From an uncultured Bacteroidales bacterium (GTDB lineage Bacteria; Bacteroidota; Bacteroidia; Bacteroidales; UBA3824), in NCBI GenBank assembly GCA_937877455.1, contig CALFIU010000100.1, positions 18,320-82,319 on the forward strand: a DNA stretch of 64,000 nucleotides, in the 5' to 3' direction. Made by a program: the position numbers and the translations under genes. Below, in pieces: positions 9,977-60,571 of the stretch (the first letter of the stretch is position 1; each line of letters starts with the position of its first letter). A model generated the notes under the pieces. That model saw only the letters and a list, made by a program, of their open reading frames with translations. It was not told the DNA's origin and did no database searches.

Positions 9977-10159
9977 TCAAGAGTTTTCAAAGTTAGGCTT
10001 GTTATTGTCTGCTTTAACTTTGCCCTGCTCATAATAGTTGAACTTGTTGTCTTTCAAGTAGAAACTTGCAACAACGTCACGTCTTCCCATACCGCCTGGT
10101 ATAACTAAGCGGTTGCACCAACCTTTGTTGAATAGGCAGTCTTTGCAAATCTTATCCAT
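9977..10159 (-). CDS. small Cys-containing hypothetical protein
   Basis: Track ORF trimmed to MDKICKDCLF... Confidence 0.35.
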   Translation of the reverse strand: MDKICKDCLFNKGWCNRLVIPGGMGRRDVVASFYLKDNKFNYYEQGKVKADNNKPNFENS

Positions 10160-10210
10160 ATCATTAGAATTAAATGTCGTACTTTCGGAGGTTGTCACAC
10201 CTCCAGAAAG

Positions 10211-10645
10211 TTAGTGAGAGTTGCGCAAGCCAAGAAAGAACTGAAGTTCACGCTCAACACCTTTTGAGTTGCGGTAAATGCAGCAATTCTTCTCAGTGTC
10301 GTAAAGTTCGTTTCCTCGCTGTTCGATAGGGCAATGATAGTTTTTGTGCTGATAGACAGTTTGTTTGTCAATGGTTATTTTTACGATGCAGTGGTCAAGA
10401 ATTGCACCGCCTCCCAAACTTCGTGAAGTCGAAACAAGAAGCGGAATCTTTACCATTCCCGTACTTCTGCCAACGTAACCGATAGTGTCATAACACTCAA
10501 ACCAATCTTTGCCAGTTGTGGTGTCACCATAGAATACTCGTACTCTCTGATTTCTGTTACCACAATAGTTTGCCAAGATATTGCACACCGCGTCGGGTGT
10601 TCTCTGGTCAAAACTAATTCCGTTTACAACTTTGTAATCTTTCAT
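10211..10645 (-). CDS. hypothetical protein
   Basis: ORF track, 144 aa. Confidence 0.55.
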   Translation of the reverse strand: MKDYKVVNGISFDQRTPDAVCNILANYCGNRNQRVRVFYGDTTTGKDWFECYDTIGYVGRSTGMVKIPLLVSTSRSLGGGAILDHCIVKITIDKQTVYQHKNYHCPIEQRGNELYDTEKNCCIYRNSKGVERELQFFLGLRNSH

Positions 10646-17016: not shown

Positions 17017-17222
17017 GCAAGACAATGAGAAATAGTCAGAATAGCGATGTGCAACACGTTTGCCGCGATTGCGTCCATGTCACCTTTGAGACGAAGTTTA
17101 ACACTATTTCGTTGAAAGGTGAGCCTACGCTTGGCAGATGTCCGTATTATACAGACGGAAAGTTTTGTGTATTGCTATCACAGAAAAGTTGCGAACATTT
17201 CAAAAAGAAAAGTACGATATGA
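17013..17222 (+). CDS. small Cys-rich protein, possibly zinc-binding
   Basis: ORF track. Cys pattern CRDC...C....C.....C. Confidence 0.45.
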   Translation: MSKTMRNSQNSDVQHVCRDCVHVTFETKFNTISLKGEPTLGRCPYYTDGKFCVLLSQKSCEHFKKKSTI

Positions 17223-17767
17223 ATTTACGAGAAAAGAAGATTTTGTTTGCCGATTTAGACGGCACATTGATCCAGACCGCAAGCGGTAAGACATTTGCCG
17301 AGGACTGTACTGATTTCAGAATCAGAAAAGACGTTCTGGATAAGATACGTTGGATGCCAGATCTGGAATATGTGCTTGTTGTCACCAATCAAGGTGGCAT
17401 ACCAGAGTACATTTCCAAGCAAGACTTTGAGACGAAGTTAGATGCTATTCTCTATTTCCTCAATCGGTATCTGTGTTATGACATTACTGTTGATGGAAAG
17501 CACAGTTGTCCGAAGTGGATTGCAGGAACATATTGCGCTTCGCTTGACAAGACTGATTCGATGCGCAAGCCAAACACGGGAATGTTGCAGAAACTTTTGT
17601 CGGAAGAAATCATCGGGCAAAACAAACATTTCGCAAAGTCTGAAATGCTGATGATTGGCGATGCCAGCGGCAAAGATGGTCAGTTTTCGGACTCTGACAA
17701 GAAATGTGCCGAGAACTTTGGTATTGACTATCTCGATGTCGAGGATTTTCTTGCCATTTCTTGCTAA
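17219..17767 (+). CDS. HAD-superfamily (subfamily IIIA-like) phosphatase
   Basis: Four HAD motifs: FADLDGTLI (DxDGT nucleophile), VVTNQGGI, KPNTGML and MIGDASGKDG. Start trimmed to MNLREKK. Confidence 0.8.
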   Translation: MNLREKKILFADLDGTLIQTASGKTFAEDCTDFRIRKDVLDKIRWMPDLEYVLVVTNQGGIPEYISKQDFETKLDAILYFLNRYLCYDITVDGKHSCPKWIAGTYCASLDKTDSMRKPNTGMLQKLLSEEIIGQNKHFAKSEMLMIGDASGKDGQFSDSDKKCAENFGIDYLDVEDFLAISC

Positions 17768-19668: not shown

Positions 19669-20250
19669 TTACTCTTCTGCATCCATGGCCGCCTGAATGA
19701 TTTTGTGTGAAATGCTCATTATTCTTCCCATTTCTACGGGTCTCACCTCTTTCAGATTGTTTTCCTTCAGATATTCGTTGTATGCGTAGAGTAGCGGACA
19801 TTGGTTGCATTTCAATGGGAACACGAAGTTGATGGTGTCGGTTTCGTCTTCAGTACCTTGCTCATTCTTCGCTTTGATTTCGTTGTACTTTGCGAAGAGG
19901 TCGGCACGTTCTTTTGAGCCTACTGGCTGTTGCTTTGCAGAGCGCAGAATTTCTTTCATTACCTCTTCCGTGCTTACCAGTTCCACCTCTTCGAGCTGTA
20001 CGGGTGCTGCCACTCCATCCTTTACGCGGGAGCGTCTGGAGTCATAGAGTTTCTTGAACTTCACGCTTTCGACAATGTTGTTGCGTATGCTGTTGTTCTG
20101 TTGTACCGATAGAGCCTCGTTCTCTGGGTATGCGATGATATAAGCATCGTTTTCAGAGTAGCCGATACTCATTAAATCTGCCATGACAAGATATTGAATT
20201 GTGACGTTCAATTTCTTCGCTTCTGTTTGTTTTTGCTTAGATAATTCCAT
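19669..20250 (-). CDS. possible small terminase subunit (HTH-like N-terminus), in an unusual position downstream of the MuF gene
   Basis: N-terminal pattern KLNVTIQYLVMADLMSIGYSENDAYIIAYPE...SIRNNIVESVKFKKLY resembles TerS DNA-binding domains. No other TerS candidate lies next to TerL. The similarity is weak. Confidence 0.35.
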   Translation of the reverse strand: MELSKQKQTEAKKLNVTIQYLVMADLMSIGYSENDAYIIAYPENEALSVQQNNSIRNNIVESVKFKKLYDSRRSRVKDGVAAPVQLEEVELVSTEEVMKEILRSAKQQPVGSKERADLFAKYNEIKAKNEQGTEDETDTINFVFPLKCNQCPLLYAYNEYLKENNLKEVRPVEMGRIMSISHKIIQAAMDAEE

Positions 20251-20369
20251 AATTTAATACGATTCTGAAAAATTTTCTTTGATTTTTCTTGGTCAGTTCA
20301 GATATTCTGACTACTTTTGCAGTGCGGAATGAGTGAGGGAGGTCATGCCCCCGCATTCTGCACCTAAGT

Positions 20370-20394
20370 CCGAGCAACCAAAATGGTTGCTCGG
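20370..20394. terminator. hairpin just downstream of the MuF-fusion gene
   Basis: CCGAGCAACC aaaat GGTTGCTCGG, a perfect 10-bp stem. Confidence 0.4.
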
Positions 20395-20402
20395 AGCTCT
20401 TT

Positions 20403-21821
20403 TTATTTGTTGTCGAATATACATTGTAACAAACCATCTTTGTTGATGTAGAATATACTTGGTATGGTTGAAAGTTCGCCTTTTTTCGAGAACTTGCCGA
20501 TTGTTCTTGTCACAGCACTTTTCAATTCTTCAAGTTTGTTGTTTCTATCCCAATAGAAAATAGCGCAATCCGCTTTCCTCGCGTTTTCGATATACTTTCT
20601 AATGGTGTTTTCATTTGCAGTAGAAATATATTTCACGTCCCATGTGCGATTGTCAAAACGTATGTCCGGCTTTGCTGTACCATTGCCATTTTCTTGAAGA
20701 AACTCCACCTGTTTTGCTCCGAAATCTGCAAGTAAACGTCCGACGTGCTTTTCTGCTTGGCCACCACTCATTGCTGCTCCATTAGGCTTGACGTTAGAGA
20801 ATTGATGTTTTTTGTGATATACGTTAAAACCACCGTTGCTGGGGTTGAAGTATTCCTTTTCCCATTCTTCGCTGTAAGCATCAAACTTTGCTCTTGCTTG
20901 TGCAATCGCATCTGCATCTTCCCGCTGTGTGCGCTCATTGTTTGTTGTTTTGCCATCAATGCCGTATATAGGAATGACATAGCAACAGCAATGTCCGTGA
21001 TAAGGTGGGTAGCCATCTATGTCTTCCATTTTATGAAATCCGACCATGCTATCACACGTCTCGCATGGATAACTGCTTCCGCGTAGGACATAATAGCCAG
21101 CAGCACCATCTTCCTCATGTTCCATTGACAATTCTTTCATCCAAGCCATTTGAAGAGTGAGCTTTGCCATATTGGTGACATTCGTGCTACCATTGTTTGA
21201 TATACCAACGGCACCCTTTTGAACACCCTTATTGCGAATGTATGTCGCATTGAAATCGTCGGCATGGTCGAATGTCGCCATTATCTCTGGCATGGTGTAG
21301 ATGGAATGCAGGTGAGACTTGACCTTTGTGACGGCAGCAGCCATTGCGACATTTGCGTAACGTAACGCGGCTATTGCCGCTTCCCAATCTTTCATTGCCT
21401 TATACAGATAGCCGTCGAGAGTGTCTTGCAGGTTTCGGTTTCCGCGTCCGAGTAGTGCAATCCATGCGGCGAGGGCATTTTTTCTTCCAGACGGAGAACC
21501 GTCTGGCACAGTGGCTGTGGAGTAGTCATAGATGAGATCAAGGATTTCCTCTTCTGCGTTATCCATGACTTCTGCTATTTCAGCCATCATTTTTTCGTTG
21601 TATTGGCTGCTGATAGAGAACTTTTGCGGGTCAACGTTGTACTTATAGCAGATGGTGACGATTTCCTGTGCTGCGTTAGCAAGGCATTCGTCCACTTTCG
21701 CCTCCAGCACCCGGGCATAATCTTCACGTCGCAATATAAACTGCTTTGCAGAAGTGATGTCTTCCGATGTCGGCAGTCTATATTGCGACGTATCGAGTGA
21801 TATTTTGATTGTATTACTCAT
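20403..21821 (-). CDS. head morphogenesis protein (SPP1 gp7 / Mu F family) fused to a C-terminal PD-(D/E)xK nuclease-like domain
   Basis: MuF signature DGYPPYHGHCCCYVIP (compare PPxHxxCRC). It lies immediately after the portal, as in SPP1. The C-terminal ~140 aa carry E(KHVGRLL)...KPDIRFDNRTWDVKY, i.e. E..PD..DxK. Confidence 0.75.
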   Translation of the reverse strand: MSNTIKISLDTSQYRLPTSEDITSAKQFILRREDYARVLEAKVDECLANAAQEIVTICYKYNVDPQKFSISSQYNEKMMAEIAEVMDNAEEEILDLIYDYSTATVPDGSPSGRKNALAAWIALLGRGNRNLQDTLDGYLYKAMKDWEAAIAALRYANVAMAAAVTKVKSHLHSIYTMPEIMATFDHADDFNATYIRNKGVQKGAVGISNNGSTNVTNMAKLTLQMAWMKELSMEHEEDGAAGYYVLRGSSYPCETCDSMVGFHKMEDIDGYPPYHGHCCCYVIPIYGIDGKTTNNERTQREDADAIAQARAKFDAYSEEWEKEYFNPSNGGFNVYHKKHQFSNVKPNGAAMSGGQAEKHVGRLLADFGAKQVEFLQENGNGTAKPDIRFDNRTWDVKYISTANENTIRKYIENARKADCAIFYWDRNNKLEELKSAVTRTIGKFSKKGELSTIPSIFYINKDGLLQCIFDNK

Positions 21822-21864: not shown

Positions 21865-23643
21865 TTAATGGGTTGCATCCCACTTATCCCACTTCGACTT
21901 TGCCTTTCCTGTTGTTGGGTCAATCTCATTGCCGTTTTCATCCCAAGACTTCCCAGACTTGTTCTTTCTACCGCGTGCCGTTGCTACGCTACCTTTTGTG
22001 CGTTTCCTTGCCCGACCTTTCGTTGTGGTTTTATTACCATTTTCGTCGGTAGAAGTGGAAGTCGTTGTTTCCTGTGTGTAGTCGGCTTCGATTTCCGCAA
22101 GAGCCTCAGCCTGTCTGATGGAGATTTCCGACTGGATTTCAAGTTTCTGCTCTGTAAGTAGCAGTTCATGTTCTTGTTCAGCCTTCTTTTCAGCCTGTAT
22201 GCGCTCCCATTCTTGTGGTGTGCTGTACGGCAGTTTCTCTGATGCTGTCTGCTTTGAGAGGAAGCCACCCACAACTGCTGTGTTGAGGTTTGTGGTCAGC
22301 TCAGTAATGTTGAGGTGGATATACGGCTCAATGTAGTGTCGAATGTTTGTGTTGAGGAACGCCAGACGGTTTTCGCTTTCAATACCATATCCCCAAGTAA
22401 AAATGTCAATCATCTTGTCAACACAGCCGTCGTATTCCTGTGCGTCGGTCATAGCCTTCTCGTATGCGTCGGAATACATGATTTTGAGTGAAACACCAGG
22501 CGTATCGCCAGACTTCAGTTCTGGTGTCTTCACTGCGAATGACTGCTTGTAGATGTTGTCTTCGAGTTTGTCAAGTTCTGCCTTGTATGCGTTGCTTGCA
22601 TCCTGACGGTTGAGGAAACCGATTTCTCCGTCTGAAGGCAGTAGCATGATCTTGGAGGCATAGGACATATCCTTTGTAGTCACTTCCTCACTTCCCTCAC
22701 CTTTGACATACATGATAGGAAGGCCGAAGTCGTGGTTGCTGTGTGCGAGGTTAGAGAAAGCAATCTCATAGTTTTCGATTGTCTCTTCAGAGAACGTCCA
22801 GCACGGTCCGTTTTCGTCTCGCATGTATGCAACGGGTATCGTGTCGAAGCCGTGTGGCTCCATCCATTCCAGTTTGTAGCCGTCGGTTGAGAAAAGTTTG
22901 AAGATAAGTTGTTTTGCTTTCTCCAATAAGTTTTTCGGGTCGCCATCAGCCACGAAACGATAGTAGTAGGTATCATCCCATACGTCAATGTATCGTTTTG
23001 TTACACTTCCGTCTTCCGAGTAGTTGCAATACGTTCTTGCGAATGTACTGAGTTTTCCTGTGCGCAAATCGTAGTGCGGGAATAGTTTGTCACCATTGAG
23101 GAAAGACAAAACTTTCCAGCCAAACTCACCTTTGTCAAGGAATCCGACGAAAGCACCGTCACCTGTTGCTTTGACAGACTTTGCCAGTTGATACCATGCA
23201 ACCTCCATGTTTTTGTTCGCCCATCCATTTCTGAACTCATTGAACACTTCGGTAGTTTCTTCCGTCACGCTCTTGTCAGAAAGTTCAAACTGAATGTCGT
23301 TGCCGCAAAGATGTGTGAGGTGTTTAACGAGAATGATTTGTTGGAACGAGAAAGCGTAACGAGGAATCTCCTGAATATACCACTTCCCATCTTCCTCATT
23401 CTGTTGCCAAACATCTGGGAACAGTTCTTTGTCGTTGATCAGATGCCCCGCAGGGTCAAGTTCACGCAAGAAGTCTTCTTGTGTAACAATCTTCCTGTGC
23501 AGGGAGTCGTGTGTGATAGGAACTTCCGAAACATTGTTCCAGATGTAACCATGATCATAGTGACCATCGGGTAAGACGCGAGTAAAAGGCTTCTTTGTAA
23601 GAATGTCTCTTAACTGCTGTGTTTGTGTGAACTTTTCAGCCAT
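21865..23643 (-). CDS. portal protein
   Basis: 592 aa. It sits between TerL and the MuF-family gene, which is the SPP1-like order. K/R-rich C-terminal tail. The call rests on synteny and size; no motif was verified. Confidence 0.7.
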   Translation of the reverse strand: MAEKFTQTQQLRDILTKKPFTRVLPDGHYDHGYIWNNVSEVPITHDSLHRKIVTQEDFLRELDPAGHLINDKELFPDVWQQNEEDGKWYIQEIPRYAFSFQQIILVKHLTHLCGNDIQFELSDKSVTEETTEVFNEFRNGWANKNMEVAWYQLAKSVKATGDGAFVGFLDKGEFGWKVLSFLNGDKLFPHYDLRTGKLSTFARTYCNYSEDGSVTKRYIDVWDDTYYYRFVADGDPKNLLEKAKQLIFKLFSTDGYKLEWMEPHGFDTIPVAYMRDENGPCWTFSEETIENYEIAFSNLAHSNHDFGLPIMYVKGEGSEEVTTKDMSYASKIMLLPSDGEIGFLNRQDASNAYKAELDKLEDNIYKQSFAVKTPELKSGDTPGVSLKIMYSDAYEKAMTDAQEYDGCVDKMIDIFTWGYGIESENRLAFLNTNIRHYIEPYIHLNITELTTNLNTAVVGGFLSKQTASEKLPYSTPQEWERIQAEKKAEQEHELLLTEQKLEIQSEISIRQAEALAEIEADYTQETTTSTSTDENGNKTTTKGRARKRTKGSVATARGRKNKSGKSWDENGNEIDPTTGKAKSKWDKWDATH

Positions 23644-23660: not shown

Positions 23661-26411
23661 TTATTGTCTTGGTGATAGTTTTCTGATAGTTCTTATGCGG
23701 CTTCTGCCACCTTTGTTTTGTAGCCATTTCGGAACGACCGCCTGTGTATGCTTTATGTCGAATATCTCTCGCATGAAGAGAGCCTCAAAGAAGTCAGGTG
23801 AATGTCCTACGACCGCCTTGTTTTTCATTTGCTCTTTGTGGATAAGACACCAACCCTTATCTTCTTTCGACATGTCCTGTTTTACGCATTTGCGTTCAAT
23901 CTGAAGAATGTCGTAAAGAGTTTTTGTTTCCTTTCCGATTTTGTATTTTCTGCGAAGAAGAGTTGGCTCAATGCTCCATCCCTCTTGCTGCGTTCTTTCT
24001 GCAAACTTATACGCGCACTGCGATTTCTTGTTATCGTACAGGTATTTGTCTTTCAAGTCAACCGCCTCTTGGTTGTTGAACTTGACAGCACTTGGAAACG
24101 CGCCTTTCAAAACCTGCCCCATACCATTCAAGTCATAAGCGAAATTCTGTTCCAAAACTCCCCATTCCTGTAGTTTTGCTTTCAGTAGGTTCACGGTAGT
24201 AAACGGGTCTCGGCGACAGACATAGACATCGGCTACATGGTGTCCTATCCAGAACCATGTCACACAGTTGTCACCACCATCACCTGCCACGTCGCAAGTT
24301 GCGCGTCGAACTTTGTCGCCCACCATCTGCGCGTTCTGAAAGATTTTGTCGAGGTGATGTGCCTGAATCATATCGTCGCCCATCTTTATGATATCCCAGT
24401 TTCCGTCAAACTCCCTTGCTCGGATTTCTGGCGGCTGGTTCAGCAGCGATGCTATATACCCCGGGTCGTTCTTCAGCAGAGCCTTGTTGTCTTTCAAACT
24501 TGCTTTGATGAAAGTTACCGACTTCACGAAGAAAGAAGTCTTTGTGTAGCCGTATTGTTCCCAATCGGGGTCCCAGGCATCATCAATGAGGTCTTTGCAT
24601 TGTTCGTAAACTTCTTCTGGAGTGTCACCCCAAATAATGTTGTCAACAGAATCGTCCGGCATATAGCAGTACCGAACAACTCCGTCACGTTCTGGAATCG
24701 CAAAACCTTTTCTTTCTGGGTGAGTTTTTCCGTCTGAATACACGGTGTCAACTTTTCCAATCCACCAATCCACAAACTTTCTCAACCATGAAAGCGGGTC
24801 TGGGTTGCAAGTTCCGAGAATGCGCGAATGCACTCCGACCGTGTTTCGGTTTGAAGTCATAAGGAACTTGAACATTTCAAACGGCATTTGCGGCAGCTCG
24901 TCGATACCGATGTACGCAAACTGTTGACCACGAAACTTTGTGTCGAAGTCAGACATTGGCATGTCGTAGATGGTAAGACCAAGTTTTGCACCCGTCTTGA
25001 AGTTCCAAGTCATATCATCTTTCGACTTGTTGTAGCGGCCAAGGTGGTTGAACCAGCGTTTACTTTCGTTGATGATATTCTCGAAATCGTCTTTGTTTTT
25101 TCGGAAGATTATGCCATTGAAATGTTTGTTGCGAATGTCGTACATCGGCTCCATGAGCATCGTCACGGTGTTGTGGTTGATGGTGTAGCCGTCGGTCATA
25201 TACAGATGGTCTCTGCCCGTGACGGTAATGCAACGGCAGTTCTGCTTTGTCTTTCCTTTCTTGATATAAAGAAGTTTCTTTGTCAATATATTCCTTTCTG
25301 AAGGAGTTGTAGGAGTCTTTGCGTTGACGTGCGCCCGTGACTTGAAATTAGTTCTTGCAAACAATTCTCCATCGTCAGGTGCGACAAACGAAACTTTCCA
25401 ATATCCTATCTTTGCAGGATCATCGTCAATCTGTGAAACTCTCGCCCAAATTCCGAGTGAGCGTGCTACTTCTGCAATATCTTCAATCAGCAGTTTATTT
25501 GGCAAGGCAAGGTACGGGTGTTTGTGCATAGAACGTCCGTTCTTGAACATGACACCACGCAGATACTCCCACCTTGCGGCTACCGATGCAGTCTTGTATT
25601 CAGGTGGAATCCTTGCAGGTTGTCTTGAACGGCTTGTAGTAATCTTTCTGCGGTTCTCATCCGTCAGTCCTCTCAGATACCAATTCCCGTCACGTCTGCT
25701 TGTTCTGACTTTGTAGCCCATTGCGCGAAACTTGTTACACAGGAAGTAATCGCTTTCAAGAGCGACACCCACTTTGTCGAAGTGCCAGAATCCAGTTCCA
25801 CTGATATAACCGAGGATGAACGGATGCAATGGCAGGTCAATAGCCGTCTTTTTCTCATTCAGTTCTACTTCGCCGCAAAGAGGAATCTCAACAAAGTCTG
25901 TCTTTCCTCTACGCAGAGAAAGCGGGTAAGGTCTGTCTATGGCATAATTATCCATGATTTCCCTTGCAGTCATTTCATGGAAGTCTTCACTGCTATTCGT
26001 CCGCGCCCAGAACCTATGATTATCCATGCAGGTTATGCTTGTTCCATCGTCGAAGTGGAAGATATAAACTGTGTTTTCCCCTTGCTCGAAGATGTTGCTC
26101 ACTTTCTGCACCCCATTATACGGCGTACAGATGAGGTCTCCGACTTCGAGATCCCCCATCTTTCTGAATCCAGACGGCGTAGCAACAGGTGTAGCATAGG
26201 TGTTTGCTTTGCCACCGCCTCTGTTGCCTCCAAAAACGATGATGTCAGCCACACAGCTCAGTCCAAACTCCTGTGCGCCTTTTTGAGCGATGAAGAAGTT
26301 AGACTCCTTTTTGCTACTCTCTCTGGCTCGCAGTTGTTCGATATATCTGTGTGAATAGATGGGCTTTCCATCTTTCGTATGTAGTCCAGTTAAACCGTTC
26401 TGTTCGCTCAT
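23661..26411 (-). CDS. terL: terminase large subunit interrupted by an intein in the Walker A loop
   Basis: Start trimmed to MSEQNG (ATG 26409-26411). The P-loop FGGNRGGGK is separated by 346 aa from TVTMLMEP. Downstream lies Walker B FAYIGIDELP and a long nuclease-half-sized C-terminus. The spliced product would read GNRGGGKT. Confidence 0.85.
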   Translation of the reverse strand: MSEQNGLTGLHTKDGKPIYSHRYIEQLRARESSKKESNFFIAQKGAQEFGLSCVADIIVFGGNRGGGKANTYATPVATPSGFRKMGDLEVGDLICTPYNGVQKVSNIFEQGENTVYIFHFDDGTSITCMDNHRFWARTNSSEDFHEMTAREIMDNYAIDRPYPLSLRRGKTDFVEIPLCGEVELNEKKTAIDLPLHPFILGYISGTGFWHFDKVGVALESDYFLCNKFRAMGYKVRTSRRDGNWYLRGLTDENRRKITTSRSRQPARIPPEYKTASVAARWEYLRGVMFKNGRSMHKHPYLALPNKLLIEDIAEVARSLGIWARVSQIDDDPAKIGYWKVSFVAPDDGELFARTNFKSRAHVNAKTPTTPSERNILTKKLLYIKKGKTKQNCRCITVTGRDHLYMTDGYTINHNTVTMLMEPMYDIRNKHFNGIIFRKNKDDFENIINESKRWFNHLGRYNKSKDDMTWNFKTGAKLGLTIYDMPMSDFDTKFRGQQFAYIGIDELPQMPFEMFKFLMTSNRNTVGVHSRILGTCNPDPLSWLRKFVDWWIGKVDTVYSDGKTHPERKGFAIPERDGVVRYCYMPDDSVDNIIWGDTPEEVYEQCKDLIDDAWDPDWEQYGYTKTSFFVKSVTFIKASLKDNKALLKNDPGYIASLLNQPPEIRAREFDGNWDIIKMGDDMIQAHHLDKIFQNAQMVGDKVRRATCDVAGDGGDNCVTWFWIGHHVADVYVCRRDPFTTVNLLKAKLQEWGVLEQNFAYDLNGMGQVLKGAFPSAVKFNNQEAVDLKDKYLYDNKKSQCAYKFAERTQQEGWSIEPTLLRRKYKIGKETKTLYDILQIERKCVKQDMSKEDKGWCLIHKEQMKNKAVVGHSPDFFEALFMREIFDIKHTQAVVPKWLQNKGGRSRIRTIRKLSPRQ
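25170..26207 (-). mobile_element. 346-aa intein with a LAGLIDADG-type homing endonuclease remnant
   Basis: Hint N-part VATPSGFRKMGDLEVGDLI...SITCMDNHRFW. LAGLIDADG-like PFILGYISGTGFW and WEYLRGVMFKNGRS. C-terminal CRCITVTGRDHLYMTDGYTINHN followed by a +1 Thr. Confidence 0.8.
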
Positions 26412-26526
26412 AAAATATTTACATTTTTGGCACAAAGGTAGTTCGCAAACGACTCTATAACATCTTTTTTGCTTGGAAAACAAAACATTTCCAAAATAAA
26501 ATATCTTTACAAGTTTGTTCTCAGTA

Positions 26527-26534
26527 TAATTTTG
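26527..26534 (+). promoter_or_regulatory. Bacteroidota-type -7 promoter box (TAnnTTTG) upstream of the head operon
   Basis: TAATTTTG lies 71 nt upstream of the ATG at 26605, in the TerL/scaffold divergent intergenic region. Confidence 0.35.
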
Positions 26535-26604
26535 CGGAAAAATCATTACAGGCACAGACAAAAAAGGTCTGTTCAACCAACACAAAAACTAAACATTTTA
26601 CGAC

Positions 26605-52201: not shown

Positions 52202-55200
52202 ATGGCAAAGAAAGTAACGATTGACCAAGAGATTACAAGTCTCGACCAGCCTTGGGGCGGCACATACCAGAACGGGCAAGAGTGGGGCTTGAAGAAAGAA
52301 CGGGTCGAAGAGTTTCTGAAGGCGAAACTATCAGCCCATGAAACAAGTATCGCTGGCAAAGTTGCTGGCGTTATTGTGAACAACACAGAAGTTACGAAAG
52401 ACGCAAACGGCAAGGTGAATATCATTGTTCCTTCGGTTACAGCAGACGTTACCAATCCGAGTAACGCCAATGCCGCACAAGCAGGTGCAGTTGCAACGGA
52501 GATCAATGCTATCAACTCCAACCTCATTGCCGACATTCAGTTGGGCGAGACAAGTCAAGACGGCTCAATGATAGAACTAAACTTCTTCAATGCCGCAGGT
52601 GACAAACTTGACGATTTGACAGTTCTGATACCAGCAGCGCAAGAAGTCGGTGAAATCATCCAGCCTGTAATCACAACTGAACTTCTTTCAGCATCCCGTA
52701 TCAAACTTGGTGACAGCATCAGTCTCAGATGGGGCTATGACTGCCTACGAAAGTTTGAGGGTGTGAGTGAGCGCGTAAACTATCCGGCACAGACCGTAGC
52801 CGTGACAGTTAAGATAGGTACTACCACAGTCTATACTGAGACCTATGCACAAGTAGCCGTTGGAACAACAAACACTCTCACGCTTAGTCCTGAAATCATC
52901 AACCAGGCAGGTACGGTCAGCATCAGTGTCGTTGCTACTACGCCTATTGACGAAGAAATAAAGACAAGTCGCGGCTCAAAGAGTGTAACCGTCATAACGA
53001 TGGATCTTGCTACTACCTTTGACCCTGCGAGTCAGTTGGCGTTGAGCAACGGATATACCGACGGACAGACAATAGCCATCCCATATACCTATACCGTTCC
53101 AACGGGAACTACATTGAGAGTGTGGGTAGATGGTGTGTTGGACGCAACAGACAGCATCAGCGGCACAGGGCGAAACTACGTCTATCTGACAGCGAGCAAC
53201 CTAAGTGCCGGACGGCATAACGTACAGTTGATAGCCGAGAGTGCAGGTTTGTTGAGCAATGCCGTGAGCGTAGATGTACTGAAGGCAGGTGGCACAGCGG
53301 ACTATCTTGGTATTCGCATGAAGACCGATGTCAGTCAGTTGTCGAGTATGCCACTTCCATACGCCTACGGAGTTACAGCATTACCGTTGTCCGTTGCTCA
53401 GTTTGAGGAATTGACCATTGACATTGCAGCGTGGAACAACGACACATTGGCGAGTACGATTTTCATAAGCGTTGATGGTGTTGTGACCCAGACATTGACG
53501 GCAGACAGAACGTTGCAAACCATAAGCCAGCGTTTTGACACAGCGGGAAATCACACGATGGTTATAGCCTTGAACAACGACAATATTACAGCATACAGGA
53601 CATTCGGCGTTACCGTCAATGCCGCATCGGGTGTAACTGAGAGCGAAGCCGTAGGTTATCGCACAAAGTTGACTGCTACAGGGCGCAATAACGGCGAAGC
53701 CAACCCTGCTGATTGGGGTGGTATCACCACGTTCACGGGTGTTGACTGGCGAACCAACGGCTGGAACAGGGGTAGTGACGGCGTAGATACGCTGTTGCTT
53801 ACCAATGGCGCAAGGGCAAACATTGATGTCAAGCCATTCGTGCTTGATGCCAGTGACGGCGACTACTCCATCCAGAACGGAGGTATGACTCTTGAAATGG
53901 AAGTGATGGTCAGTCAGGTCATGGAGCGCGGTGCAACAGTTCTGAGCTGTCTTTGTGACAACGACGGCAACGGCTATCCGATGGGTGTCAAGATTACGAC
54001 CGAGGAGGCAGGTCTCTATTTTGGCGGTGTTGAGGAAATCACCACTGCTGAAGACCTTGTTGATGAGAACGGCAATTACATTGACTACAATGGAAACATT
54101 GTTGATGAAGCGAACAAAGTAAAGTTGAAGATTACCCGTCCTCATGGCGTTTCGATGAACATTGCCATTGACCGATGGGTTCACCTTTCATTTGTTGTTC
54201 AACCCGTGACGAATGGATATGGTCTGGCAATGCTCTTCATCAATGGTGTGTTGAGCCGTGCTAACCGCTATACAGGTTCGTTGAGACAGAACACACCTGT
54301 AGGAATCACCATTGATTCGGACAAAGCAGACGTAAGAATACGGTCGTTGCGTTACTACCGCACACCATTGAGTGCTGACGAAGTTATTGGCAACTGGATT
54401 ATCGACCGTCCAACGGCAGCTTTGATTCAGAGTGCGCACACCAACAATGCCGTCGGCGACATCAACAACACTACGGACAGTGATGGCAACATTGCCATAG
54501 ACCATGACACGTTGCTTAGTCGCGGTCGTGGTATTCTTACCATTATCCGAAGCGACGATAGCGGTTATGGACTTTCCGACCTCTTCACCTGTACGGACAA
54601 AAAGCAAAACTTCAAAGCGGACCTGGTGAAATGGGAGCCTCCACTTGATGCAAGCGGCAACCCCATCGGTGAGGGTTTTGAAGCAAGAAACGTCCGTGTC
54701 AGAATCCAAGGTACATCTTCTGTGAAGTACCCATACAAGAACTTCCGTATCTACCTCACTACACAGCAAGGTTCTGTTGCAAAAGTTCTTATCATCGGTG
54801 GCGTAGATGTAACTGAAACCGCAAAGGGCTATGCAATGCGCGGCAGCGGTAACAGCATTGAGCAAGCCGTTATCTGTGCGAAAACAGACTTTGTGGATTC
54901 TTCTTTGGTAATGAACACTGGTGGCGCACACCTGTTTAACGACATCATGCACGCTCTGCATCTTGATACGCCACCACAGGCTTACGATGCAAGAGTGAGA
55001 CAGGCTATTGACGGTCTTCCCTGCGACATCTATGCCGGAACCAATGAAAACGGCACTTTGCGATATTGCGGTCAGTTTGTCCTTAACAACGAGAAGTCGA
55101 AGTCTGGTAAGATCTTCGGCATGGAGGGCGTAAAAGACGGCAACGGAAATGAGGTTGATTTCCGCAGATACGAGAACCAAGGAACGGACGAAGAGCCAAA

Positions 55201-58200
55201 CATGGTTCTTGTAGGACCCGATACCAAGCCGTTTGCATTGGAGGCTTTGACAAACTCGTCGCCCATGACACTCTTCCAAAGTGCTGGTTCTGCCAACAGT
55301 CAGGCATTAGCAAACCAACTTGCGGCTGAATTTGACAATGGATTTGAGTTCAACCATCCAGAAGACGCTAAATGGGCGACAATCGGCACGGGTTCTTACT
55401 CTGATTGGGGCGGTGCGCAGACAGCCATCAAACGACTCTTTGGCTGGATCTATGACTGTGTGCCGTCTGCCATGCGCACTAACCCAGATTACGGCACAAC
55501 GGCTGGTTGGAGCGACGAGAGCAAAGCAAAATGGGTGTCGAGCAAGTTCAAGAGCGAGGCAAGCGACTATTTCAACGTCAACCACCTGTTGACCTATTAT
55601 CTTTTCACGGATTATTGGGCAAGCGTTGACCAGAGAGCCAAGAACATTTTGTGGCGTACATGGGATGGACTGATATGGTGGGCTACTTTCTACGACGGCG
55701 ACACAGCCATGTCAATCCGTAACGATGCCTTCATGGCTTATCTCTACAACGTCACCCGCGACACTTACGACACGGAACGCTCTAAGTACGCCTTCGAGGG
55801 TCACAATAGTTGGCTCTGGTGTCTCGTTCTCGCAAACTTCGAGGATGAGCTGAAGACTTGCGCCGCAAACTTGCGCAATCAGTTGACCACACAAGTCATG
55901 CTCAATGAGTTCAACACTGTCATGCAGGGCAACTGGAGTGAAAGGCAGTACAACAAAAGTGGTAAACTGAAGTACATCGACACCATTAACACGATGAACT
56001 ATGTCTATACTTTGACTGGTAATCGTGAGTTGCACCGCACACAGTTCTTGACCGACCGTGCAAGACTTTTAGATGCAAGGTATGGTGCAGGAAACTATAA
56101 CGGCGACGTAATCACGTTCACCGTCGTGCGCAATGCAAGCGATACGCCGTCGCACCTGACATTGAAGAGTGGCGACCTCTACTATTTCGGTTACAAACTT
56201 AACGGAATATGGTTGCAGGGACCATCGAGGGCTGCTGCTGGAGAAAGTTTGACGCTGAACTTCACCGATACGCTTGCGACCAACGACCCGCTTATGTTGG
56301 GTGGTGCAAGTTGTATCATCGAGCTTGACTTTACAGAGTTGGGCAGTCAGTTGAACGGTACGGTCAACCTCTCGCTATGCACAATGCTGTCAAAGTTAGT
56401 CATGCCTGCAACGAAAGGCGTAGCCAATGCCCCCCTAACGCTTGGCGACATAGCAAAGTTAGAGTATGTTGACATTACAGGACAAACAGCGGTTCATACT
56501 GGCACAACAGGCGTTTTCGACCTGTCAAAGCACACACGACTCACGATTTTGCTTGCAGGTGGAACAAGTTTGACGCAAATTAAACTTCCAGAAGGTTCAC
56601 CTCTTGATACTTTGGTCATGCCGTCTTCACTTCAAACTCTGACGTTGCGCTATCTGCCAAAGCTCAGACATAGCGGACTTACCTTGCAGGGAACAGCGAA
56701 CATCACTGCATTAAACTTTGCAGAATGTCCGTACCTGTCATGGCAGACGCTTATGACGATGTGTCCGAACATTGACCATGTGCGCATCGAGGGTATGTCC
56801 GGGCGTGTCCGCTCTTCAATGATACGGCCTTTCATGTCAGGCTATCGTGGTTTGACCGCACAAGGAACAGAGCAGACATATCCAGCACTTATCGGAAAAG
56901 TCCAACTCATAGACGTTGTGGACGATTTCGAGACGATGAGAAGTTTCTTTGCTCAGTGTGGACTCGAACTGGAGGCAGCACCATACTCTCAGTACATCTT
57001 CGACGATTCTGAAACTGATCCGTGTAACATCACGAATGAGGACAATCAGACTGGTTACGACTACTACGACGCTGAAAACGGCGAGACAACGGCACACTAC
57101 AATAACAATAGTTCATTGCTCAACCAGCATCCGTTGAACTATGTCGGTAGCGGTCATGTGAAACTTATCCGTGACAAGAGCCAGTTGTGTAGCGGTCGTG
57201 TCAACAACTCCACACACAAGATGAGAGTAACAAAGTTGTCGAAAAACAGCCTTACAGAGACAGCCGACGGAAACTCTTTCAATCCCACCGATCCAAACGG
57301 TGAAGGATATGACGTGTTCATGTATCTGCCACACTATTGGTACAAAGGTGTCAATGACTATAAGAACGCAAGAAAACATTTCTTCTGTTCTGCCAACACA
57401 CAATGTCCTGCAAGTACGGCAGCGAACACCATCCGTTACCAACTGTCAAACATCTTGTATGTCGCAGGAAAGGCTATCACCAACGAACTCTATTCTTCTG
57501 GTGTTTCTGTTGACGACCTTCTCACGACTGCCACAGAACTTTCAACGTACAGAGTTTCGGTAGAAGGAATGAAGCAGGTGAGATTCCCAGGAATCAATCA
57601 CAGTTACTTCTCACACGTCTTTGAAGACGAGAACGGCAACATCTTGTCAATCAACAATCTCTTGATGGCAGATGCAAGCGGCAACCCAGCAGACTTTATG
57701 AACGACGAGGGCGACTATGACTTCAGAACCGTTCCAGAGGGTGCAAAGTATTTCTATTTCTGTTGCAGAAACGCATCAGCCGCAAAGTCTGGTGTCGAAG
57801 TCATTGTCACTGACTCTTCAGAAGTTGAAGCCATTGAGCCGGATTGGGTGGAGCATAAGCCAGAGCTTATCGGTGTCTATCAGGGATATGCCGCTGGCAT
57901 CACCACTGGTGGAACACCCACAAGCGGACTTCGCTCTATCAGTGGAGAGACCGTATCGAGAGGTAGCGGAACATCTACACAGGTCGCTGCATGGACTTAC
58001 GACTCGGACGGCAATCCTACGGCACTCAATACCAGTACCAGAATCAACGGTACTGCACAGGACTTCTTCAACCTTGCAAGTGTGCGCACTGCACAGACGG
58101 AGGTACAGAACGGAGAATACAGCACCGTACCCTACGAGACCTCAAAAGACATGGCGAACCTGCTTATGGCATGGTTTGGTACACGCGACATTGAGACCAT

Positions 58201-58762
58201 CGTCGGACGTGGTTCAAGTGCTGGTGAAACGACTGGTGTCAGAAACAGCATTGCTTTCGGCGACTCCGATTATCCTGCACAGAACCAGCATAACAAGATG
58301 TGGGGTCTGGAATGTTGGACGGCTTCAACCTACGAATGGATGGATAAGGGCTGTCTCAACACGCCTACGTTTGCCGCCTTCAAGAAAAACAAACGTAACG
58401 CACCGACTGGAAGTAGCATTGATTACTACTACAATATCGTGCAACAGGACGGTAACGAGCGTAGGGTGAAGGTTGCTACCGCTAATCAGGCATCCAATGT
58501 CGCCCGTGTCCGTTTCGGCAGATATTGTGACATTGTTGTAAGTTCATACGCTGGTGACAGCAACTATGCAACAGGATATGCCGCATATCAATCATCAAAT
58601 GGTTCTACTGGTCGCGTCCTTGGTCGCTCGAGCTACAATGCGCTTGCGAGCGCGGGGGTCGCTTTCTCGTACACGAATAGCGCCTCCTCGAACTCGTACA
58701 CGAACGTCGGCGGTCGGCTCTGCTTCTTCGGAGAGATTGAGAACGAAGAAGACCTACTCTGA
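52202..58762 (+). CDS. 2186-aa tail fibre / receptor-binding protein; DGR target 1
   Basis: Domains read by eye, in order:
- ConA/LamG-like (WVHLSFVV...VRIRSLRYYRTPLSADEV)
- CotH-like (IQGTSSVKYPYKNFRIYL, AKTDFVDSSLVMNTGGAHLFNDIM, NILWRTWDGLIWWATFYDGDTAMSIRN)
- LRR-like tract
- C-terminal lectin-fold-type VR (GRVLGRSSYNALASAGVAFSYTNSASSNSYTNVGGRLCFFG). Confidence 0.85.
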   Translation: MAKKVTIDQEITSLDQPWGGTYQNGQEWGLKKERVEEFLKAKLSAHETSIAGKVAGVIVNNTEVTKDANGKVNIIVPSVTADVTNPSNANAAQAGAVATEINAINSNLIADIQLGETSQDGSMIELNFFNAAGDKLDDLTVLIPAAQEVGEIIQPVITTELLSASRIKLGDSISLRWGYDCLRKFEGVSERVNYPAQTVAVTVKIGTTTVYTETYAQVAVGTTNTLTLSPEIINQAGTVSISVVATTPIDEEIKTSRGSKSVTVITMDLATTFDPASQLALSNGYTDGQTIAIPYTYTVPTGTTLRVWVDGVLDATDSISGTGRNYVYLTASNLSAGRHNVQLIAESAGLLSNAVSVDVLKAGGTADYLGIRMKTDVSQLSSMPLPYAYGVTALPLSVAQFEELTIDIAAWNNDTLASTIFISVDGVVTQTLTADRTLQTISQRFDTAGNHTMVIALNNDNITAYRTFGVTVNAASGVTESEAVGYRTKLTATGRNNGEANPADWGGITTFTGVDWRTNGWNRGSDGVDTLLLTNGARANIDVKPFVLDASDGDYSIQNGGMTLEMEVMVSQVMERGATVLSCLCDNDGNGYPMGVKITTEEAGLYFGGVEEITTAEDLVDENGNYIDYNGNIVDEANKVKLKITRPHGVSMNIAIDRWVHLSFVVQPVTNGYGLAMLFINGVLSRANRYTGSLRQNTPVGITIDSDKADVRIRSLRYYRTPLSADEVIGNWIIDRPTAALIQSAHTNNAVGDINNTTDSDGNIAIDHDTLLSRGRGILTIIRSDDSGYGLSDLFTCTDKKQNFKADLVKWEPPLDASGNPIGEGFEARNVRVRIQGTSSVKYPYKNFRIYLTTQQGSVAKVLIIGGVDVTETAKGYAMRGSGNSIEQAVICAKTDFVDSSLVMNTGGAHLFNDIMHALHLDTPPQAYDARVRQAIDGLPCDIYAGTNENGTLRYCGQFVLNNEKSKSGKIFGMEGVKDGNGNEVDFRRYENQGTDEEPNMVLVGPDTKPFALEALTNSSPMTLFQSAGSANSQALANQLAAEFDNGFEFNHPEDAKWATIGTGSYSDWGGAQTAIKRLFGWIYDCVPSAMRTNPDYGTTAGWSDESKAKWVSSKFKSEASDYFNVNHLLTYYLFTDYWASVDQRAKNILWRTWDGLIWWATFYDGDTAMSIRNDAFMAYLYNVTRDTYDTERSKYAFEGHNSWLWCLVLANFEDELKTCAANLRNQLTTQVMLNEFNTVMQGNWSERQYNKSGKLKYIDTINTMNYVYTLTGNRELHRTQFLTDRARLLDARYGAGNYNGDVITFTVVRNASDTPSHLTLKSGDLYYFGYKLNGIWLQGPSRAAAGESLTLNFTDTLATNDPLMLGGASCIIELDFTELGSQLNGTVNLSLCTMLSKLVMPATKGVANAPLTLGDIAKLEYVDITGQTAVHTGTTGVFDLSKHTRLTILLAGGTSLTQIKLPEGSPLDTLVMPSSLQTLTLRYLPKLRHSGLTLQGTANITALNFAECPYLSWQTLMTMCPNIDHVRIEGMSGRVRSSMIRPFMSGYRGLTAQGTEQTYPALIGKVQLIDVVDDFETMRSFFAQCGLELEAAPYSQYIFDDSETDPCNITNEDNQTGYDYYDAENGETTAHYNNNSSLLNQHPLNYVGSGHVKLIRDKSQLCSGRVNNSTHKMRVTKLSKNSLTETADGNSFNPTDPNGEGYDVFMYLPHYWYKGVNDYKNARKHFFCSANTQCPASTAANTIRYQLSNILYVAGKAITNELYSSGVSVDDLLTTATELSTYRVSVEGMKQVRFPGINHSYFSHVFEDENGNILSINNLLMADASGNPADFMNDEGDYDFRTVPEGAKYFYFCCRNASAAKSGVEVIVTDSSEVEAIEPDWVEHKPELIGVYQGYAAGITTGGTPTSGLRSISGETVSRGSGTSTQVAAWTYDSDGNPTALNTSTRINGTAQDFFNLASVRTAQTEVQNGEYSTVPYETSKDMANLLMAWFGTRDIETIVGRGSSAGETTGVRNSIAFGDSDYPAQNQHNKMWGLECWTASTYEWMDKGCLNTPTFAAFKKNKRNAPTGSSIDYYYNIVQQDGNERRVKVATANQASNVARVRFGRYCDIVVSSYAGDSNYATGYAAYQSSNGSTGRVLGRSSYNALASAGVAFSYTNSASSNSYTNVGGRLCFFGEIENEEDLL
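58609..58730 (+). repeat. DGR variable repeat 1 (VR1)
   Basis: 122 nt aligned without gaps to the TR. 14 mismatches, all at TR adenines. Confidence 0.9.
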
Positions 58763-58994: not shown

Positions 58995-59260
58995 AAACTC
59001 TGCTTCTGGGATAATGCTCACGGGTTGGGCGACATTCAGAAGATAATCGTTGCTACGGCGAACACTTACGGGATAAGTGATGGCTGACAACGAGGGATTT
59101 GAGCCTCGGCAACAGCAATACTTTCCAACCCGCAAAGAATTGGAAAGAATTGGAAAGCCGGAACATCACAGGGTGTGGTCGATTATGGTCAAGTAGTTTC
59201 TGCAAAGATGTCGAAAGCCCTATGACCACAAGAAACGAAGAAGAAAATAAATATCGACAA

Positions 59261-60571
59261 ATGTCAAAGAGATATGGCTTCCTGATACCGAGAATAGTTG
59301 AACGCTCTAACATGGATAGGGCGTTTGATGAGGTCGTAGATCAACTTCCAGAGCCTCGCAGAACCCACTATCGCAAAAGGCGAGAAGAGATTCTTGAGCG
59401 TACTACGAAGGCGATTTCCGACGGAAGTTTCCGTGTCAACCACTATCGAGAAATGTGGGTTACGGACGGTTCCAAGATACGCAAAGTGCAAAGTCCGTGC
59501 GTAGAACACAGAATCGGTTGTAATGCCATCATGCGCATTGTGGAAGATGTGCTGTACCCAAGTGTCATTAAAACTTCTGCCGCAAGTATTCCTGGACGCG
59601 GTATGCACAGGCTGTTTGTAAAGATGCGGCATGATATTGAGAATGACCGTGAGGGTACGGCATACTTCTACAAGTGCGATATCAGAAAGTTCTTTGAAAG
59701 CATTGACCAAGACCTGATGTGGGAATTTGTCAAGGATAAAATCAAAGATCCGATACTTTTGCCGATACTCCACAACTTTGTGACGATGATGGAGAAAGGA
59801 CTCTCCATCGGTTTGCGCTCGTCACAATGTTATGGTAATATCTTCCTTAGCGGCATTGACCATTACTTCAAGGACGTTCTTGGTGTAAGGTACTACTACC
59901 GCTATTGTGACGATATTGTAATTCTTGCATCGAGTAAGCGCAAACTTTGGCTGCTCCGTGACATCATGCACGAACAGGCTGCTGAGCTTAAACTTGAAGT
60001 CAAGCCGAATGAATGTGTCAGACCCATTGAGGAGGGTATAGACTTTCTCGGCTTTGTATATGACGGAAAGAAAGGAAAACTGCGCAAGCGCACCAAGCAG
60101 AAGGCCGCAAGGAAACTTCACAAGGTCAAGAGCCGTAAACGCAGACAGCAGATCATAGGAAGTCTGAAAGGCATGGCGAAATGGGGTGACTGCAAACACT
60201 TGTATAAAACTTTAACAGGTAAGAATATGGAATCATTTAGCGAAAAAGTTAAGCAGATGAAAAAAAACGGTGTTGAATACACTGGTAAGGATGGTAAGCG
60301 TATGCTGACGGGTCAAGAGGTATCTCTGAGGACGTTGGTTAATATGCACATAGTAGTTCTGGACTTTGAGCCAGACGTTCCCACAAAGAACGGCAATCGT
60401 TATGTCGTTCAATTCCAGAGAGACGATGGCACTATTGGTAAGTATCTTACGAATGATTCTGAACAAAAGTTCTGGTTGGATGAGTTTCGTAAGGCGAACA
60501 ACATTCCGTTTGAGTGCAAGATTACACCTCAGTATTTCGGACAGGGCAAGGTACGTTATCAATTCACTTAA
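59261..60571 (+). CDS. DGR reverse transcriptase with a C-terminal extension of about 114 aa
   Basis: YYYRYCDDIVIL (YxDD), the DGR-type motif SIGLRSSQ ([ILV]GxxxSQ), and an N-terminus MSKRYGFLIPRI typical of DGR RTs. The track start at 59099 is a TTG inside the spacer. An alternative ATG lies at 59222. Confidence 0.9.
   Translation: MSKRYGFLIPRIVERSNMDRAFDEVVDQLPEPRRTHYRKRREEILERTTKAISDGSFRVNHYREMWVTDGSKIRKVQSPCVEHRIGCNAIMRIVEDVLYPSVIKTSAASIPGRGMHRLFVKMRHDIENDREGTAYFYKCDIRKFFESIDQDLMWEFVKDKIKDPILLPILHNFVTMMEKGLSIGLRSSQCYGNIFLSGIDHYFKDVLGVRYYYRYCDDIVILASSKRKLWLLRDIMHEQAAELKLEVKPNECVRPIEEGIDFLGFVYDGKKGKLRKRTKQKAARKLHKVKSRKRRQQIIGSLKGMAKWGDCKHLYKTLTGKNMESFSEKVKQMKKNGVEYTGKDGKRMLTGQEVSLRTLVNMHIVVLDFEPDVPTKNGNRYVVQFQRDDGTIGKYLTNDSEQKFWLDEFRKANNIPFECKITPQYFGQGKVRYQFT

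Follow-up and report, generated by a model that had tools for sequence, protein, structure and literature searches.

CdiA-CT(II) of Burkholderia pseudomallei 1026b (PDB 4G6V) is a Mg-dependent nuclease that acts on the acceptor stem of tRNA-Ala. Its family, PF18451 (CdiA_C), belongs to the PD-(D/E)XK clan and is present also in CdiA and SitA3 toxins (PMC9990079). The combination of MuF with a nuclease of this type is already published: cd13442, that is, CdiA-CT(Bp1026b), is listed among the toxin domains of MuF proteins (Jamet 2017, PMC5576092). The MuF toxins of that set carry an N-terminal MuF domain and a C-terminal toxin domain common with other polymorphic toxin families, are encoded after the portal gene of temperate phages or prophages, and are of gut or rumen origin; they come overwhelmingly from Firmicutes, and 89% are followed by a small putative immunity open reading frame (ORF) (PMC5576092). 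In Bacteroidales prophages, the ADP-ribosyltransferase Bxa and its relatives are MuF proteins with interchangeable C-terminal toxins, with genes that lie within the head-morphogenesis region (Alexei 2024, PMC11699363). MuF also anchors enzymatic domains that are predicted to be injected with the phage DNA, a model in which LPD3 is a polyvalent-protein domain and an immunity gene is not expected (Iyer 2017, PMC5512222). Here we describe a 472-aa protein encoded on the minus strand (20403-21821) of a 64,000-nt stretch of DNA from an uncultured Bacteroidales bacterium (hereafter the window; positions 18320-82319 of the 96.9-kb contig CALFIU010000100.1, C100). An earlier note, made from the letters of the window, had flagged positions 20403-20924, which encode the final 173 codons and the stop, as a PD-(D/E)xK nuclease-like module fused to a MuF head protein. 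Taken together, our analyses indicate that the protein is probably a MuF polymorphic toxin with a Bp1026b-type PD-(D/E)xK cargo, which would serve as an entry-phase effector that the doomed producer cell probably tolerates.

A predicted CdiA-CT-type nuclease on a MuF protein

The core of the cargo (approximately residues 353-472; 20406-20765, minus strand) is assigned to the PD-(D/E)xK nucleases of CdiA_C or Bp1026b type from a profile match, its predicted topology and its invariant residues. PF18451 aligns to residues 384-462, and with 27.9 bits the isolated domain just passes the gathering score of 26.6. By this measure family membership is borderline yet consistent: the profile matches 17 of 19 diverse homologues (best E 7.7e-7), and precomputed PF18451 calls are found on many homologues. 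The earlier reading of a restriction-endonuclease fold is thus borne out at the level of the clan, and the kind of nuclease is now narrower, as the match is specifically to the CdiA-CT(Bp1026b) type, whose characterized member is a tRNase and not a restriction-type DNase.

An AlphaFold2 (AF2) model of the domain, built from 23 sequences (predicted local distance difference test score (pLDDT) 95.3, predicted template modelling score 0.89), shows the PD-(D/E)xK topology, with a helix at 54-69, strands at 72-75, 88-90 and 93-99, a helix at 105-117 and a strand at 120-124 (domain-model numbering). In this model the first core helix carries E357, strand 2 has D386 at its start and strand 3 includes D395-V-K397, so the helix-1 acid, the strand-2 aspartate and the strand-3 (D/E)-x-K of a PD-(D/E)xK active site are all present, and all are conserved. 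The codons of the candidate catalytic residues, again on the minus strand, are at 20751-20753 (E357), 20664-20666 (D386), 20637-20639 (D395), 20631-20633 (K397) and 20574-20576 (K416); the two peptides in which the motif had been noticed begin at residue 354 (GQAEKHVGRLL) and residue 381 (GTAKPDIRFDNRTWDVKYIS). Across 25 homologues, E357, E373, E377, D386, D390, D395, K397, R408 and K416 are invariant. Because the MuF parts of the same proteins are only 27-37% identical, the E / PD / DxK arrangement that the earlier note had pointed out is, judged by conservation, real and no chance motif. The domain is also under strong constraint: between the window and L035, its closest relative, the ratio of non-synonymous to synonymous substitution rates (dN/dS) is 0.03 for the domain, compared with 0.10 for the MuF core.

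Further likeness to the Burkholderia toxin lies in the order of its elements and in the spacing of its active site. The order of secondary-structure elements in the AF2 model agrees with that tabulated for Bp1026b (PMC9086364). E357, D386, D395 and K416 are separated by 29, 9 and 21 residues, and E187, D214, D223 and K242 of Bp1026b by 27, 9 and 19, a correspondence that is drawn from spacing and not from an alignment. Consistent with this assignment, a Foldseek comparison of the model with the predicted viral structures of BFVD returned, at E 3e-6 to 4e-4, several minor capsid proteins of MuF type, a mycobacteriophage protease-MuF fusion and proteins annotated as 'CDI toxin-like' or 'tRNA nuclease CdiA C-terminal domain-containing'. 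The window domain differs from Bp1026b in an extra N-terminal subdomain (approximately residues 305-350; 20772-20909, minus strand), a helix followed by a beta-hairpin with a GG-x7-H-x-F motif. This subdomain is modelled as a helix at 2-16 and strands at 21-26 and 33-37 (domain-model numbering; pLDDT 97-98), and in the 25 homologues G330, G331, H339 and F341 are invariant and H336 is nearly so. In sum, the C-terminal part of the protein is a predicted metal-dependent PD-(D/E)xK nuclease of the CdiA-CT(Bp1026b) or PF18451 type.

The remainder of the protein, residues 1-290 (20952-21821, minus strand), can be assigned by sequence to the MuF minor head proteins (SPP1 gp7-like), as had been proposed. 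It follows the portal gene; residues 15-288 match the 'minor head protein / minor capsid protein 2' of a Bacteroides LoVEphage (tblastn, E 1e-28); the 472-aa ORF matches PHROG 115, 'minor head protein' (E 1.2e-7); and C278 and C280, which form a C-x-C, are invariant in an alignment with homologues that bear PF04233. These cysteines belong to the C-terminal Cys/His motif of MuF, PPYHGHCCCYVIP (residues 272-284; 20970-21008, minus strand), just after which the cargo is joined. The motif is interrupted in one 702-aa MuF-nuclease homologue (P0036), in which about 150 aa are inserted exactly between its HPQ and its C-x-C (alignment A1, columns ~375-520). The ends of this insertion are intein-like (CYSDDTKVL ... 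FWGSN, then C) and suggest that this MuF gene carries an intein.

An exhaustive search of 1.84 billion representative proteins gave 82 clusters with the nuclease domain at E <=1e-3, of which 80 are true; the other two (P0114 and P0116) are false positives, namely Calx-beta and FG-GAP repeat proteins. In the true clusters the domain is almost always C-terminal and usually stands on MuF, although in one case (P0072) it lies behind a glutamine-deamidase toxin domain. All 33 genomic loci that were found are from Bacteroidales, including Prevotella, Alloprevotella, Tannerella, Duncaniella and termite-gut lineages. The domain also occurs on unrelated MuF backbones, and at several loci as a stand-alone frame of about 170 aa with no MuF upstream. 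Loci L004-L024, in metagenome-assembled genomes (MAGs) of termite-gut Bacteroidia, have several domain-only frames per genome (~165-200 aa, some without an ATG), and behind these stands a repeated element of DNA, with a translation (MEKVKVDTIKYPLYLDRLSL...) that recurs within the loci; the frames may be orphan cassettes or decayed prophage remnants. In two Prevotella and Alloprevotella MAGs (L001 and L010), the MuF N-terminal match and the nuclease match share a strand but are separated by 2.2-2.6 kb, which may reflect an insertion between MuF and nuclease or two separate genes.

The MuF C terminus in sister phages and the search for an immunity gene

We compared the protein with its 120 closest MuF orthologues, which are 62-99% identical to it over residues 1-290, and with sister phages chosen by the synteny TerL (913 aa), portal (593 aa), MuF, 193-aa gene. 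In the protein alignment, orthologues are 67-80% identical up to the sequence CCCY(V/R)(I/V)P, beyond which they either stop, at 289 aa, or become unrelated. Thus, the MuF proteins of L040-42 have 289 aa, end right after CCCYRIPIY and have no C-terminal domain, whereas those of L043-45 have 430 aa with LPD3 at the end. A short MuF (282-298 aa) is found in a third of the set (40 of 120), and 61 of the 120 fall in one linked cluster that contains the window type (type a) together with type b (456-463 aa), which is related to it. Type b has the NGG...H..H motif in common with type a but different core residues; the same motif of the N-terminal subdomain is found again in type D, which is weakly PF18451-positive. 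The remaining orthologues carry type D, LPD3 or one of three unannotated C termini. At least six C-terminal types and the short form therefore stand on MuF cores that are 62-99% identical to that of the window, and recent exchange is indicated by P0245-P0249, which have cores 94-99% identical to that of the window and a different cargo. Two of these (P0245, 427 aa; P0248, 437 aa) have a truncated form of the type-b cargo that is intact in P0260 (462 aa), which may be cargo decay or an assembly error. Sequence comparison thus marks the nuclease end as a recombining cassette, situated between the Cys/His motif of MuF and a conserved element that precedes the next core gene. With a MuF gene after the portal gene, a variable C terminus common with toxin families and a temperate carrier, the locus has the features of a MuF polymorphic toxin.

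The conserved element, CTGCAAAAGTAnnnnnnnTATCTGAA (26 nt; 20297-20322, minus strand), forms the 3′ edge of the variable cassette within the 152-nt gap between the MuF gene and the 193-aa gene. It is kept upstream of the 192/193-aa gene in five of the six cargo types, and loci with a short MuF, whose gap is 3 nt, lack it. Read as its reverse complement, the element includes TACTTTTG, which fits the Bacteroides -7 box, TAnnTTTG, and is directed into the cargo gene from its 3′ end; the element may be an antisense promoter or simply a recombination boundary. Two strong hairpins precede it, both on the minus strand. Hairpin 1 (20368-20397) starts 6 nt past the MuF stop and has an uninterrupted 12-bp stem, or about 15 pairs with its extension; it is terminator-like, without a U-tract, and is kept in L035. 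Hairpin 2 (20319-20364) is particular to the type-a cassette: the window and L035 have it, and the other cargo types do not. The gap folds at -49.9 kcal/mol in RNAfold, and an Rfam scan of this structured region gave no match.

The gene that follows the gap (19669-20250, minus strand) encodes a 193-aa helical protein and is a core gene of the clade, with more than 326 homologues at 74-93% identity. It follows MuF in every cargo class, whether short, LPD3 or any of the nuclease types, at a distance of 3 nt from the short form and 115-329 nt in the other classes. Since it is present whatever the cargo, beside short MuFs and MuFs with unrelated cargo alike, the gene can be ruled out as a cargo-specific immunity gene. 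The earlier note had reached the same view and had called the gene small terminase (TerS)-like. On the latter point the profiles and the fold search could not confirm it: the protein has no Pfam or NCBIfam match and only a weak PHROG match of unknown function, and its all-helical AF2 model (pLDDT 76) has sigma factors as its best matches in the PDB (E ~1), with TerS only at E 8.4. By elimination it is nevertheless a TerS candidate, as no TerS gene precedes TerL.

No other gene at the locus behaves as an immunity gene. In none of the six cargo types is an ORF called between MuF and the 193-aa gene, and the window gap contains only hairpins and frame-shadow ORFs of up to 66 aa, so that the downstream immunity gene characteristic of PF18451 and MuF toxins is absent from it. 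Two ORFs of 66 and 37 aa in or over the gap were considered and rejected, as they are frame shadows of the coding region and the hairpins. The cross-cargo comparison covered about 15 kb of each sister phage; seven genes in the ~5 kb downstream, as far as the primase, and a scaffold-like gene beyond TerL all have homologues in the toxin-less sister phage, and none of them tracks the toxin. Nor did we find small ORFs common to the window contig and unrelated phages with the same domain. Two further candidates from such carriers were discarded: a downstream 'family' at five loci proved to be a translated repeat element of termite-gut Bacteroidia genomes, and an opposite-strand ORF of 76-82 aa, common to L016, L027 and L037, has no homologue in the window genome. 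The absence of an obvious immunity gene, which the earlier note had remarked on for this locus, thus holds and extends to the whole phage clade.

Prophage context

The contig is an integrated temperate phage, a Prevotella-type prophage in a Bacteroidales lineage, because the contig ends with a tyrosine integrase (PF00589 and Arm-DNA-bind_5, Bacteroidetes-type) beside a bacterial gene for an AI-2E transporter. Its GC content is about 45%, compared with 37% for the whole 4.5-Mb assembly, and related phage genes are found both on contigs of ~100-106 kb and inside contigs of 195-358 kb. The packaging operon runs on the minus strand in the order TerL, portal, MuF gene, 152-nt gap and 193-aa gene. 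It begins with an intein-interrupted large terminase (TerL; 23661-26585), recognized by Terminase_6N and a trace of Hint_2, and the SPP1 gp6-like portal protein (21865-23643; PF05133, E 1.2e-39) is encoded directly upstream of MuF.

Several other features of the contig, and one of a sister phage, were recorded. A 490-aa reverse transcriptase ORF (59099-60571; RVT_1, E 1e-13), the start of which overlaps with an RT-3 RNA motif (Rfam RF03068, 71.5 bits; 59045-59229), comes just after a gene for a 2186-aa tail protein (52202-58762); motif and ORF look like a diversity-generating retroelement that targets a tail or receptor-binding gene. A 209-aa polynucleotide/DNA 3′-phosphatase of the HAD family (17138-17767, plus strand; PF08645 PNK3P, E 1e-23; TIGR01664) is kept in sister phages; as an end-healing enzyme, it accompanies the putative tRNase of this phage. 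No tRNA genes that might compensate for a tRNase were found within the window. The toxin-less sister phage L040 has, in its early region (10074-10568), a gene for a 164-aa Tad2-like or Sequestin protein, a sponge of anti-Thoeris type, and the window phage is without a Tad2-like gene at the equivalent place. Outside the window, C100 carries four tandem DNA methyltransferase genes (10.5-13.4 kb) and encodes a divergent 409-aa adenylosuccinate-synthase-like (PurA/PurZ-like) protein (84619-85848, minus strand), with radical-SAM and PAPS-reductase-like genes as neighbours. Its scores are 86 bits for PurA and 26 bits for PurZ, for which the cut-offs are 402 and 300, respectively. The PurA-like, radical-SAM and methyltransferase genes may indicate DNA base modification.

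Possible roles of the nuclease

We infer packaging, ejection, substrate, toxicity and biological role of the MuF-nuclease. By analogy with SPP1 gp7 and other MuF fusions, and in line with the MuF-effector model of Iyer 2017 (PMC5512222), a few copies would be packaged per head and would leave it together with the DNA to enter the next cell. The nuclease would then cleave nucleic acid in that cell, with tRNA the most likely substrate by family and DNA a possible one. The effector would probably be tolerated in the producer cell, which is doomed, and would act at entry in host takeover, in counter-defence or in killing non-productive targets. An entry effector is favoured over a classical toxin-immunity pair because no relative has a neighbouring immunity gene, whatever its class of cargo, and because LPD3 occupies the same slot in a sister phage.

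A number of results weigh against this explanation, some of them concerning the family assignment and others the absence of immunity. The full-length protein scores 26.0 bits against PF18451, slightly under the gathering score, and a Pfam profile search gave no PF04233 match for the MuF part of the window protein itself. The fold was supported by AF2 topology and viral structures, but a Foldseek search of the PDB with the whole domain model, by local alignment, found nothing below E 0.1, the best match being YaeQ, which is PD-(D/E)xK-like (E 0.13). The fold assignment therefore rests on topology, the profile match and the viral structure matches. Likewise, phmmer and a family profile found nothing relevant among PDB sequences, 4G6V included, so that the link to Bp1026b rests on one near-threshold hidden Markov model match together with topology and residue spacing. 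Finally, no immunity gene was found, either adjacent to MuF or co-varying among the neighbouring genes compared, in the window or in any cargo type, whereas published MuF toxins usually have an immunity ORF, as do 89% of those in Jamet 2017 (PMC5576092) and all of those in Alexei 2024 (PMC11699363).

The last point could mean that the system is a classical toxin-immunity pair whose cognate immunity gene lies elsewhere in the ~95-kb prophage, for example in a lysogeny or moron region. We regard this as a minority possibility. Every characterized CdiA-CT toxin of PD-(D/E)xK type depends on a CdiI to occlude its active site (PMC9086364), immunity proteins accompany the MuF toxins of Bacteroidales that have been studied so far (PMC11699363), and lysogens of a temperate phage would meet their own virions; the genes compared across cargo types were those of the ~5 kb downstream and the scaffold-like gene beyond TerL. 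Set against these considerations are the six cargo types with no ORF between MuF and the 193-aa gene, the presence in the toxin-less sister of a homologue of every neighbour tested, and a contig in which no small ORF is common with unrelated domain-carrying phages. About equally doubtful, in our estimate, is that the enzyme is a DNase and not a tRNase, which would degrade the DNA of the host or of competitors at entry, with modification shielding that of the phage itself. Most of the PD-(D/E)xK clan are DNases, as are CdiA-CT TA271 and YPIII (PMC9086364), and the window domain has the canonical D-x-K on strand 3; the four methyltransferases, the radical-SAM enzymes and the PurA/PurZ-like enzyme of the contig, all outside the window, could supply the modification. 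The sole profile match, however, is to a tRNase family, PF18451, the E-D-D-K spacing resembles that of Bp1026b, and the PurA-like protein falls far under the PurA and PurZ cut-offs.

SPP1 MuF sits at the portal and binds DNA, and a cargo without an immunity gene could in principle be no effector but a housekeeping nuclease for the head or for packaging, or a module that binds nucleic acid, with a part in the morphogenesis of the phage itself. This is very improbable for a domain that is dispensable, the orthologues being short in 40 of 120 cases and carrying unrelated domains in others, and that has also turned up on unrelated MuF backbones and in stand-alone frames. About as hard to credit is a catalytically dead remnant kept as structural decoration: truncated type-b relatives such as P0245 and P0248 would fit it, but all candidate catalytic residues are invariant and the dN/dS of the domain is under that of the MuF core.

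An entry effector that the doomed producer cell tolerates is the explanation that we favour. A more specific proposal, which we put forward only tentatively, is that the MuF C terminus of this widespread clade of ~100-kb phages is a hot-swappable slot for injected effectors without an immunity partner, filled by PD-(D/E)xK types, LPD3 or unannotated domains, and that the cargo is an entry weapon that benefits the phage, by counter-defence or by selective cleavage of host RNA or DNA, and not an interbacterial toxin. Self-protection would then rest on timing, on the fused form being latent or on the cassette's own structured 3′ region.

Compared with the Jamet 2017 set (PMC5576092), the locus is from Bacteroidales (Prevotella-type), its MuF is LoVEphage-like without a PF04233 match, and there is no adjacent ORF in the clade. 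It differs from the Bxa group (PMC11699363) in that its cargo is a PD-(D/E)xK nuclease and again in having no adjacent immunity ORF. With the Bp1026b CdiA-CT it has in common the PF18451 match, the secondary-structure order and the E/D/D/K constellation at similar spacing, whereas no pairwise or profile-to-PDB sequence similarity and no significant Foldseek match were detected; delivery would be by MuF and the capsid instead of CdiA/CdiB, and no CdiI-like partner was found. Like the effectors of Iyer 2017 (PMC5512222), its MuF carries an enzymatic domain that would be injected with the DNA, and a sister phage has LPD3 in the same slot; unlike polyvalent proteins, it has a single cargo, of a nuclease type known from interbacterial toxins.

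The family assignment itself is routine, and what is new here is the clade-wide, immunity-free organization of the cassette. To our knowledge, MuF toxins have barely been tested as a route of enzyme delivery, characterization being limited to the Apk2 alarmone synthetases and Bxa. The clade provides a natural comparative series, in which near-identical phages differ mainly in whether their MuF has no cargo, LPD3 or one of several types of nuclease. It lends itself to studying which role a nuclease delivered by virions would play for a phage and by what means a producer cell that lacks an antidote stays alive. If the immunity-free slot is true, MuF 'toxins' would divide into immunity-linked and immunity-free classes with different biology.

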